Origin: Escherichia coli
Lineage (GTDB): Bacteria > Pseudomonadota > Gammaproteobacteria > Enterobacterales > Enterobacteriaceae
Direction: 5' to 3' (one strand)
Assembly: GCF_024502345.1 (NCBI RefSeq)
Contig: NZ_JALDNN010000001.1
Length of the DNA: 64,000 bases
Shown here: positions 22,459-24,851 of the stretch, piece by piece
Layout of the letters: every line of letters starts with the position of its first letter
Numbering within the stretch: position 1 is the first letter of the stretch
Notes under the pieces: generated by a model
Told to the model about the DNA's origin: nothing
Database searches by the model: none
The model's input: only the letters and a program-made list of their open reading frames with translations
Translations under genes and position numbers: made by a program

Positions 22459-23791
<1,333 letters not shown>

Positions 23792-23866
23792 ATTTATTAG
23801 ATCAGGCGTGACCTGACCCATCTTTGGCACAGAGCCAAACCTGAACTGACGGACCGCTCTGTGCCA

Positions 23867-24172
23867 TTACCTGACGTTGTATTCTTTTATGTTAACACCC
23901 TTGATACTGTATATACCTGTCCGCTTAATTCGCTTGCCCTTTTTATTCGTAATAGTTGCTGTAAGTGTACTGCAGCGAATGGAATGACGTTCATCAATCA
24001 CCAGCCGAATTGCTTCTGAAGCATCTTCCACCTCTAGAAGGTCGTGAGTCTTATTTAAGCCGAATGGAACAAGGTGGAAGGCAGTTTTTCCTGATGATTT
24101 TCTGGTTATTTTTACTGGATACAACACATCACCACTTTTATGGATTAATTCAAGCTGTTCAATGTAAATCAT
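23867..24172 (-). CDS. hypothetical small basic protein (101 aa from the ATG at 24172), no family recognised
   Basis: ATG preceded by AAGGAAAG Shine-Dalgarno, 16 nt after the stop of the upstream YhcG-like ORF; AT-rich; the track's 113-aa version uses a TTG start. Confidence 0.4.
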   Translation of the reverse strand: MIYIEQLELIHKSGDVLYPVKITRKSSGKTAFHLVPFGLNKTHDLLEVEDASEAIRLVIDERHSIRCSTLTATITNKKGKRIKRTGIYSIKGVNIKEYNVR

Positions 24173-24188
24173 GGCAACTTTCCTTCGT

Positions 24189-24668
24189 TTATTTGCATGA
24201 ATATACAAACCGAAAATAGGAGATGCAATACAAAAGCTGTGGAAATATCAAACAGCCTCTCAATTTGGCAGACAGCGTCTGCCAAATCTTTGCCGATGGG
24301 AATTCTGCAGATGGTGTCTGCGGAATTCCCAATGGTGTTAATTCGCCAGACACTGTCTGGCGAATTTCAACATGTTGAAAAAAGAGGTAAAAAAGCCTCA
24401 TTTGGCGTAAGTTTTTTGCAGAGAACCCACGCTTATACCTTAGACTTAAATCCTTTGATAGTCGCTTGATTAGCTGCGCACCATACGCAGCCCTTGCCTC
24501 GCCACCTTGTTCAAATTCGACAATTCGTCGGCCAATTTCCCAGTATGTCGCGGTCATCAGCGCGTTAACGCTACGTACCGTTTCCGTCCGGACGCTATCG
24601 ACCAGGTGAATAATATCGTCGTGGATTTGCTGGTAGCCTGTTGAGGTTCTCTCTGAGAGCGATTCCAT
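24189..24668 (-). CDS. yhcG: YhcG/DUF1016-family N-terminal domain ORF (159 aa); either a truncated yhcG remnant or a short stand-alone variant
   Basis: First ~96 aa (ATYWEIGRRIVEFEQGGEARAAYGAQLIKRLSKDLSLRYKRGFSAKNLRQMRLFYLFF) look like the DUF1016 N-terminal domain; then three 13-14-codon repeats and a hydrophobic tail; too short for the 375-aa K-12 YhcG. Confidence 0.5.
   Translation of the reverse strand: MESLSERTSTGYQQIHDDIIHLVDSVRTETVRSVNALMTATYWEIGRRIVEFEQGGEARAAYGAQLIKRLSKDLSLRYKRGFSAKNLRQMRLFYLFFQHVEIRQTVSGELTPLGIPQTPSAEFPSAKIWQTLSAKLRGCLIFPQLLYCISYFRFVYSCK
24263..24366. repeat. array of three palindromic or quasi-palindromic units with centres 39 bp apart
   Basis: atttggcagacagcgtctgccaaat / gggaattctgcag..ctgcggaattccc / aattcgccagacactgtctggcgaatt, all built on GCCAGAC/GTCTGGC-type arms. 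Confidence 0.7.
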
Positions 24669-24851
24669 TATCTGTCCCTTTATATGGCGCTGCGTTGAAT
24701 AATGGAATCAGCTATACGCCGGGCATCTACCGGTAACAATCCAGATGAGCGTATTACATTGGTTTTCTTCAGATTATGCGAGGCGCTTTCCAGAAAGAAA
24801 GGAGAATTTCAGCGCCGACTCTTTTCTGAGGAGGCGGCGCTGGGACAGAGC

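Follow-up and report, generated by a model that had tools for sequence, protein, structure and literature searches.

A truncated copy of the gene yhcG of Escherichia coli (24189-24668, minus strand), found in a stretch of 64,000 nucleotides from contig NZ_JALDNN010000001.1 that is called the window below, carries three palindromic units in tandem within its coding sequence. In the window this array is a pseudogene relic, through which a nucleic-acid element becomes visible that is deeply conserved in a so far uncharacterised family of nucleases, the YhcG/DUF1016 proteins. It is strongly supported by our comparisons that the intra-strand base-pairing potential of the element is conserved and not the encoded peptide. 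As far as could be determined, this family-wide intragenic palindrome had remained undescribed: in the searchable literature no paper was found in which hairpins or palindromes are linked to DUF1016 or yhcG.

The open reading frame (ORF) in the window encodes 159 amino acids and belongs to the DUF1016_N family (PF17761; E = 1.8e-27, profile positions 2-93 of 137). Codons 1-135 (24263..24668) constitute the authentic 5' part of yhcG and the tail (24189..24262) consists of 23 non-homologous codons and a stop codon. Since the C-terminal PD-(D/E)XK domain (PF06250), which is present in the K-12 and O157 orthologues, is absent from the window copy and the homology ends at 24263, the gene is a truncated pseudogene; RefSeq likewise labels it as a pseudogene without C-terminus. 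The array itself (24262..24378, minus strand) comprises three 39-nt (13-codon) units, repeated in frame and variable in copy number. In a repeat search three direct copies with 39/39-nt spacing were recovered (24262-24287, 24301-24326 and 24340-24365), which bears out the claim of an earlier note on this DNA that three palindromes with a 39-bp period lie inside the yhcG ORF; two of these are perfect and the third has one mismatch. Unit 1 (24340..24366, minus strand) is a perfect palindrome of the form AATTCGCCAGACA-N-TGTCTGGCGAATT (13+1+13; arms at 24340-24352 and 24354-24366, 1-nt centre) that encodes (E)IRQTVSGE(L). Unit 2 (24298..24330, minus strand) reads GGGAATTCCGCAGA-CACCA-TCTGCAGAATTCCC on the sense strand, has 14-nt arms with a single C.A mismatch and encodes GIPQTPSAEFP. 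Unit 3 (24263..24287, minus strand) has the form ATTTGGCAGAC-NNN-GTCTGCCAAAT, is again perfect (11+3+11; arms at 24263-24273 and 24277-24287, 3-nt loop) and encodes IWQTLSAK. The peptides that the note had read from the minus strand, IRQTVSGEL, IPQTPSAEF and IWQTLSAKL, are indeed found there, at a spacing of 13 residues. The three units are thus copies, amplified in tandem and in frame (3 x 39 nt), of a single self-complementary element of 25-27 nt.

Within the 64-kb window, perfect palindromes with arms of at least 10 nt and loops of at most 5 nt occur at nine loci, two of which belong to this array, and the core CAGA[CT]..[AG]TCTG occurs six times, three of them in the array; no further copies of the unit were found in the window. 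The folding check proposed in the note gave a clear outcome, as the 151-nt region scored z = -8.9 as RNA (-66 kcal/mol) and -8.8 as DNA relative to dinucleotide shuffles. Because the units are palindromes, a mirror ORF on the plus strand (24197-24469, 90 aa) spells near-same peptides (IWQTASAK, ILQMVSAEF and IRQTLSGEF); it is very likely not a gene.

A set of 80 homologous loci was collected, one genome per species and with 55-92% identity, which span the Entero-, Beta-, Gamma- and Deltaproteobacteria, the Acidobacteria, Cyanobacteria, Nitrospirae and Planctomycetes. All 80 carry ATT-NNN-CAGAC-(3 nt)-GTCTG-N'N'N'-AAT at the identical codon position, with 9-11 of the 11 Watson-Crick pairs in each and a perfect palindrome in 54. 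Most genes have a single unit at that equivalent position, which answers the question in the note whether other DUF1016 proteins hold the motif only once. Many different middle triplets occur, each with its complement as the partner triplet. Even the rare variants of the core are symmetric (CGGAC/GTCCG, GCGAC/GTCGC and TTTCGAC/GTCGAAA), and the peptides change with them (IFRTLSG, IYATLSR and ILSTLSK). A more distant set consisted of 12 plasmid-borne DUF1016 genes with 30-43% identity, from Actinobacteria, Bacteroidota, Cyanobacteria, Legionella and the IncA/C and IncP plasmids. In 11 of these, the centre with the highest self-complementarity in the entire gene is found exactly 18 nt 5' of a conserved Trp codon; in the remaining one the palindrome is absent or weak. 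The distant subfamilies have kept the outer AATT and differ in their stems (GTGAC/GTCAC, GTATC/GATAC, CCAAC/GTTGG and CCACAG/CTGTGG). The element is an ancestral, family-wide feature of the YhcG/DUF1016 PD-(D/E)XK nuclease genes. A Tth111I-type site (GACNNNGTC) in the core, considered as a family feature, is true of the YhcG-proper subfamily and fails in the distant ones. In the type strain of Salmonella enterica subsp. arizonae (L078, 1501-2531) a frameshift or an error in the assembly interrupts the yhcG frame just 5' of the unit, and a palindrome with 13-bp arms is intact.

The note had also considered that the array could be a real peptide repeat. In that case selection would see I-x-Q-T-x-S-x-x-L and the palindromy would be a side effect of codon choice. 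It is true that K-12-type YhcG contains the three units in frame, that intact orthologues continue into normal downstream sequence after the repeat and that even the core variants have retained the Thr and Ser of the motif. Nevertheless, the constraint is on self-complementarity. In an alignment of 77 sequences, with column shuffles (500) and slid partners as controls, 94.4% of the cells were paired, versus 80.4% in the column shuffles and 23-47% for the slid partners, and 136 double-sided changes were observed versus 45 expected, a number reached by none of the 500 shuffles. The compensatory substitutions lie above the controls and identify a conserved secondary structure, and this agrees with an independent scan using the pattern ATTNNNCAGACNNNGTCTGNNNAAT, which leaves the triplets free and makes no demand on complementarity. 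Because pairing at the innermost position fits independence, the loop is taken to be 3 nt.

The codon usage points in the same direction. The Ser codon of the unit is TCT in 70 of 77 genes, versus 11.8% of the other Ser codons in the same genes, and in genes with a GC content at third codon positions (GC3) of 0.7 or higher it is TCT in 22 of 22 versus 3.9% elsewhere; the Ile codon is ATT in 74 of 77 genes versus 35% elsewhere. When the peptide was kept fixed and recoded synonymously according to the codon usage of the gene, 5.6 of the 11 pairs were formed versus 10.6 observed (P < 0.01 in 76 of 77 genes). Residue 2 of the motif co-varies with residues 7-8 as reverse-complement codons (R-GE, W-AK, V-AQ, P-AE, F-GK, C-GK and A-AQ), and the distant subfamilies keep the palindrome with wholly different peptides. 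In an AlphaFold2 model based on a 50-sequence alignment, residues 101-135, which are exactly the three units, have a predicted local distance difference test score (pLDDT) below 50 and no secondary structure and lie between two helices, so that the unit is predicted to reside in a disordered loop of the N-terminal domain. Considering that the triplets co-vary, that rare codons keep the pairing and that the peptide is predicted to be disordered, the constraint rests on the nucleic acid and not on the peptide, and an ordinary peptide repeat is hardly credible.

One reservation applies to the covariation: template switching or conversion from arm to arm could yield 'compensatory' changes without any selection for pairing, and given this possibility the covariation is weaker proof of selection here than it would be for distant paired sites. 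A rival explanation is a self-perpetuating palindrome without function, in which template switching equalises and occasionally extends the arms within a tolerant disordered loop and slippage changes the number of units. Quasi-palindrome correction is an established mutational mechanism, the loop tolerates one to three or more units, some lineages have lengthened their stems to 14-17 bp at the peptide's cost, and free-standing copies reach the size of 49-nt perfect palindromes. However, the element is retained in 80 of 80 close homologues and in all but one of the 12 distant genes, over identities of ~30-100%, although palindromes are prone to deletion. Furthermore, rare codons are maintained in GC-rich hosts, and the distant subfamilies have conserved the outer AATT as well as the register with respect to the Trp codon. 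Where a gene contains several units, usually one of them is perfect and the rest have decayed (10.8 versus 9.1 of 11 pairs), whereas pure mutation should treat all units alike; this decay of redundant units argues for selection on one copy over a purely mutational upkeep of all. A palindrome that merely perpetuates itself is therefore quite improbable in our estimate. The units within one gene differ in their triplets while each is self-complementary, which argues against simple sequence-specific recognition by a dimer.

Among E. coli the array is an in-frame 13-codon copy-number polymorphism that changes in steps of 39 nt, with one, two or three units. Its units are arranged head-to-tail, their length is a multiple of three (39 nt) and their number depends on the allele, so that it classifies as a variable number tandem repeat. 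In the K-12-type yhcG (375 aa) the same units are present, likewise three, and lead into SFPLPRSTYVRLL and the nuclease domain. The yhcG of O157:H7 (349 aa) has one unit and is 78 nt (2 x 39) shorter, due to a deletion between short TTG repeats, and a third, mosaic allele (370 aa) has two units with different arms and triplets (GTGCAGAC..GTCTGCAC and CGCCAGAC..GTCTGGCG). In a census of the locus in 5,426 complete E. coli genomes, the three-unit sequence was present in 3,414 (including ~718 that are truncated as in the window), the two-unit allele in 480 and the one-unit junction in 391, and 947 genomes had no yhcG and a lone palindrome. Some rare one-unit alleles (proteins P0013, P0017, P0023 and P0024) are hybrids of units 1 and 3, for instance IRQTVSAKSFPLPWS; these imply independent 78-nt deletions with a crossover within the palindrome core, and they are left with non-complementary triplets.

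The 78-nt difference between one-unit and three-unit alleles is a length polymorphism of the same sort as the yhcG marker of LSPA-6, an assay of polymorphisms that are specific to lineages, whose classical alternative allele is presumably the 78-bp one. In this typing scheme the length of the yhcG amplicon serves as a lineage marker in O157:H7, and the difference is given as 394/392 bp and treated as an anonymous indel (PMC3514354, PMC8733641). The same papers make no mention of a palindromic unit or of conservation beyond E. coli (PMC3514354, PMC8733641). The locus is not the CVN001 marker of the generic E. coli multilocus variable-number tandem-repeat analysis, since CVN001 has 4-8 repeats and occurs in ST131, which lacks yhcG.

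The junction in the window coincides with the array. Strains with an intact yhcG match the window solely from 24263 rightwards, with identity through GTCTGCCAAAT up to the final base of palindrome 3; all sequence 3' of it has been replaced, and the breakpoint lies exactly at the base of this palindrome. The earlier note had named as one possibility that the palindromes mark an insertion or deletion junction, and as to position this is correct, as the junction falls exactly at the outer edge of palindrome 3; the palindromes themselves are ancestral to yhcG and did not arrive with the insert. It had likewise named orthologues with the same three units followed by normal sequence as an indication that there is no junction here. 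The K-12 gene does have that structure, but the window copy is nevertheless truncated at 24263. The replacement DNA (23793..24262) is ~470 bp long and AT-rich and displaces the 3' two-thirds of yhcG, the downstream palindrome and the short spacer to nanQ. The AT-rich turn reported after the third unit was confirmed, with a GC content of 0.33-0.40 across 23875-24250 versus ~0.5 in the surroundings and a 23-residue tail that is non-homologous. The ~718 truncated genomes, BL21 and ATCC 8739 among them, have exactly this arrangement, and in the 5,426 genomes the segment was found at no other place: it is single-copy and always at this locus.

Part of the replacement DNA (23795..23877, plus strand) resembles, at 75-81% identity, the 'left inverted repeat' named in the annotation of AJ512683, which bounds the variable Z/TO cargo region of P2-like phages, and it contains a hairpin with an 11-bp stem (23825-23835 / 23866-23876). 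This stretch directly follows the stop codon of nanQ and is distant from any prophage. The remainder includes an orphan ORF of 101 aa (23867..24172, minus strand), labelled 'transposase' by PGAP/RefSeq. The ORF has no domain in Pfam or NCBIfam and nothing significant in PHROGs or PADLOC (best: a phrogs match of unknown function at E = 0.19), no phage match was found, and its 37 homologues are orphans, all without domains. An identity as insertion sequence or transposase lacks domain support, and the segment is single-copy at its locus; the label therefore looks unsupported. The family is small (82-100% identity) and occurs in E. coli, Shigella, Enterobacter and Yersinia at the edges of prophages or prophage remnants. 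No CAGAC palindrome was found near the homologues at the Enterobacter and Yersinia prophage edges, and because it is absent from these donor contexts, the donor cannot explain the junction by homology.

Copies of the palindrome are also found outside the gene. Escherichia with yhcG have a fourth palindrome (ATTCTGCAGACAnTGTCTGCAGAAT) ~28 nt 3' of the stop codon of this gene, and its variable triplet is that of one of the in-gene units of the same allele. In the 947 genomes without yhcG, the gap between nanQ and gltD is 67 nt and the sole yhcG-like remnant is a 27-nt palindrome identical to unit 1. Three different rearrangements at the nanQ-gltD locus therefore end at palindrome edges. Beyond E. 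coli, the scan with ATTNNNCAGACNNNGTCTGNNNAAT yielded 41 sites in viral contigs, 38 with at least 10 of 11 pairs and 24 inside yhcG-like ORFs, and at least 126 distinct sites in metagenomes, of which at least 89 were inside yhcG-like ORFs. Of these in-gene metagenome sites, 62/89 had fully complementary triplets among the matches listed, versus a chance expectation of 1.6%, and at least 28 distinct complementary triplets were encountered. Some of the extragenic copies are recognisable yhcG fragments and others have no yhcG remnant. In one prophage-like viral contig (L123, 4686-6186), 179-nt direct repeats of yhcG with the palindrome bracket a Panacea(SocA)-MazF toxin-antitoxin cassette beside an integrase, and in another (L126, 9453-10606) the same cassette is located between such a yhcG fragment and an intact yhcG. 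This arrangement looks like gain or loss of a cassette at the palindrome region and, with the junction in the window and the yhcG-less locus, belongs to the breakpoints at palindrome edges. Two other contigs (L164, 4565-4613; L228, ~100-190) carry intergenic perfect palindromes of ~49 nt with the CAGAC..GTCTG core and no yhcG nearby, and in L228 one palindrome arm is repeated again directly downstream; these may represent a different element, resembling the ends of insertion sequences or of miniature inverted-repeat transposable elements, or extended relics.

Such copies could be taken as the sign of a miniature mobile palindromic element that was inserted in frame and marks the junction in the window, comparable to the repetitive extragenic palindromic (REP) sequences with their bacterial interspersed mosaic elements (BIME) or to the Rickettsia palindromic elements (RPE). 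In-frame palindromic insertions do occur in Rickettsia, and copies exist 3' of the stop of yhcG, on their own in the nanQ-gltD gap, and in intergenic DNA from viral contigs and metagenomes. On the other hand, the same codon register in family members, including relatives at 30% identity, indicates an ancestral and not an inserted element, the palindromes of the window sit on the conserved yhcG side of the junction and not in the incoming DNA, and several extragenic copies are demonstrably fragments of yhcG. The genome-wide search proposed in the note did not reveal a dispersed palindrome: a blastn search with the three-unit query, which copies with divergent triplets may escape, gave one place per E. 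coli genome as the median, and it was this locus in every case. A mobile element is thus very unlikely. The RPE share with the yhcG element that a short palindromic DNA is translated within a protein, in a tolerant surface or loop region, but they are dispersed, mobile, 100-150 bp long and present in many unrelated genes, whereas the yhcG element is 25-27 nt long, ancestral to one family and in a fixed codon register. Likewise, REP/BIME with their associated tyrosine transposases (RAYT) and the end hairpins of IS200/IS605 are short imperfect palindromes that are read as DNA hairpins and that have conserved blocks and a variable paired middle; these are extragenic and occur in hundreds of copies per genome, in contrast to the one E. 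coli locus of the yhcG element. With a median of one place per genome, a dispersed palindrome of the REP/BIME type is not at hand. No Y1/HUH transposase was found near the yhcG units, and the 101-aa 'transposase' ORF has no such domain.

Our favoured guess, to which we assign slightly less than an even chance, is that the element is read at the DNA level, as a hairpin or cruciform that is recognised by its structure. It would act in this form, and its most plausible structure-specific reader would be YhcG itself, which is NucS/Holliday-junction-resolvase-like, or else enzymes of the host that process hairpins; incidentally, the site would become a hotspot for slippage (gain and loss of units), deletion and cassette replacement. 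Such a hairpin hotspot would explain the breakpoints at the palindrome edges. The DNA level is favoured because an excess of G.U is lacking, copies persist in non-coding DNA, breakpoints lie at hairpin bases, and the nuclease fold and the genetics of yhcG fit. In particular, the wobble mismatches on the sense strand (GT 7 versus AC 10 in the genomes; GT 5 versus AC 18 in the metagenomes, among the matches listed) show no G.U excess, and perfect copies persist 3' of the yhcG stop, in strains without yhcG and in viral and metagenomic intergenic DNA. In a fold search the closest solved fold of the YhcG nuclease domain was NucS (NucS/Can2-type), and no sequence homologue of YhcG was found in the PDB. 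YhcG has been predicted to be Holliday-junction-resolvase-like (PMC1189080) and deletion of yhcG is synthetically lethal with hypomorphs of dnaB, dnaN and parE (PMC2672614). When the observed parts and the reading at the DNA level are taken together, this explanation is in our estimate evenly poised between right and wrong.

Several points weigh against it. The G.U comparison involves a small sample (tens of mismatches), is biased by codon constraints and constitutes weak evidence. A palindrome of 11-13 bp is short for cruciform extrusion in vivo, and the fixed frame and fixed mRNA position are equally compatible with a role at the RNA level. Breakpoints at hairpin bases can also result from generic replication slippage or SbcCD processing, for which no dedicated recognition is needed, and the donor contexts of the inserted DNA are without such a palindrome. 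Finally, some of the free-standing pattern matches in metagenomes may stem from unrelated elements.

A serious rival is a hairpin in the yhcG transcript that would control the expression of a potentially toxic nuclease, either by pausing the ribosome, by affecting the stability of the mRNA or through YhcG, which would bind or cleave it in autoregulation, with extra tandem units tuning the dose. The element keeps to one frame and one codon position throughout, its predicted RNA fold is strong (-66 kcal/mol per 151 nt, z = -8.9), each gene retains one perfect unit or more whereas the redundant ones decay (10.8 versus 9.1 of 11), and the subfamily-specific stems fit co-evolution with a binding protein. 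An RNA stem should, however, tolerate G.U, which is not enriched on the sense strand, and the perfect copies in non-transcribed or non-coding contexts and in yhcG-less strains, as well as the 11-13 bp, which are short for RNase III, do not fit well either. The stems are not followed by a U-tract or a terminator-like site: a search for rho-independent terminators on either strand of 23700-24800 found none, and the stems continue into AATT + N without T runs. Against the covariance models of Rfam 15 solely chance-level matches were obtained (E >= 4, far below the gathering scores). We consider the mRNA hairpin possible, though doubtful. A -1 frameshift at the T-run ~10 nt 5' of unit 1 was dismissed on reasoning and not by a formal test, because the T-run is restricted to E. 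coli and not conserved.

A further proposal is that the palindrome is the cognate structure of the YhcG/DUF1016 nuclease itself, a hairpin or cruciform inside its own coding sequence. This is tentative, and we hold it to be rather unlikely. If true, the element would be a self-encoded regulatory or 'self' site, for instance a decoy or antidote for autoinhibition, so that the nuclease is set free once the site is lost or titrated; alternatively, it would direct recombination and cassette exchange at the locus. The stem sequence would then co-evolve with the protein specificity per subfamily, and DUF1016 would be a defence or maintenance nuclease with a built-in nucleic-acid partner in cis, which is undescribed for single-gene defence systems. 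The note had put forward a tandemly duplicated operator or recombination site embedded in coding sequence. Of its suggestions this comes closest, as the element is a conserved cis-element of the family, whose role as operator or recombination site is conjectural.

The comparison with other known systems is instructive. Integron attC sites are recognised as folded single-stranded DNA and have conserved outer boxes, a variable interior with conserved pairing and a role at cassette boundaries (compare L123 and L126). They are, however, 57-141 nt long and imperfect, contain extrahelical bases and R''/R' core sites (RYYYAAC/GTTRRRY), lie 3' of cassettes and are linked to IntI. The yhcG palindromes are perfect, with AATT ends and a CAGAC/GTCTG core, lie inside an ORF and are without IntI, and are thus not attC sites. 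The ToxI RNA of type III toxin-antitoxin systems (36-nt tandem units) is similar in that tandem units of ~36-45 nt are associated with a nuclease gene of a defence locus in a variable copy number, but ToxI, located upstream of the toxin gene, does not code for protein, folds into pseudoknots and matures through an endoribonuclease, whereas the yhcG unit is translated, mostly single and not enriched in G.U. That the unit lies within an ORF and is single in most genes speaks against a type III toxin-antitoxin RNA. Palindrome-stimulated deletion and quasi-palindrome switching in E. coli leave the same footprints, namely breakpoints at the hairpin base, loss of units between short direct repeats and concerted change of the arms; such generic palindrome mutagenesis does not explain why the element is retained at one codon register across phyla. 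[quoted passage not shown]

The window is E. coli according to its ORFs and the RefSeq annotation of near-identical genomes, with the gene order nanE-nanK-nanQ(yhcH) (plus strand), the 159-aa ORF (minus strand), gltD and gltB. Here (24669-24851), as in O157:H7, gltD adjoins the upstream region of yhcG, while K-12-type strains have gltF-yhcA-F, with IS5 in yhcE, between gltD and yhcG (L002, 3407-6438), and another strain (L006) has DUF5682/VWA genes between gltD and the yhcG upstream region. The interval between nanQ and gltD is a hotspot of variable content. The intact K-12-type YhcG belongs to the PADLOC candidate system PDC-S02 (model PDLC04807, E = 2.2e-131), so that its role in defence is a predicted one; in the literature PDC-S02 is named solely within lists of predicted systems. 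Several of the 12 distant DUF1016 genes lie inside type I restriction-modification operons, and five of them (L133 and L136, on IncA/C and IncP, and L131, L132 and L135) overlap by 4-8 nt with a site-specific integrase gene or with hsdR, hsdM or hsdS of type I restriction-modification systems. As far as gene order can tell, this suggests an operonic coupling of DUF1016 with recombination and restriction functions.

YhcG/DUF1016 genes are very widespread and occur on chromosomes, plasmids, phages and integrative conjugative elements and in type I restriction-modification operons. A perfectly maintained hairpin that is kept at one fixed codon position across phyla, against the codon bias and at the cost of the peptide, offers a testable handle on the role or the control of these proteins. 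Moreover, the element accounts for the length polymorphism that has been used blindly in the typing of E. coli O157 lineages and for the high variability of the nanQ-gltD interval among E. coli, and it illustrates that strong nucleic-acid constraints can hide within apparent low-complexity peptide repeats.

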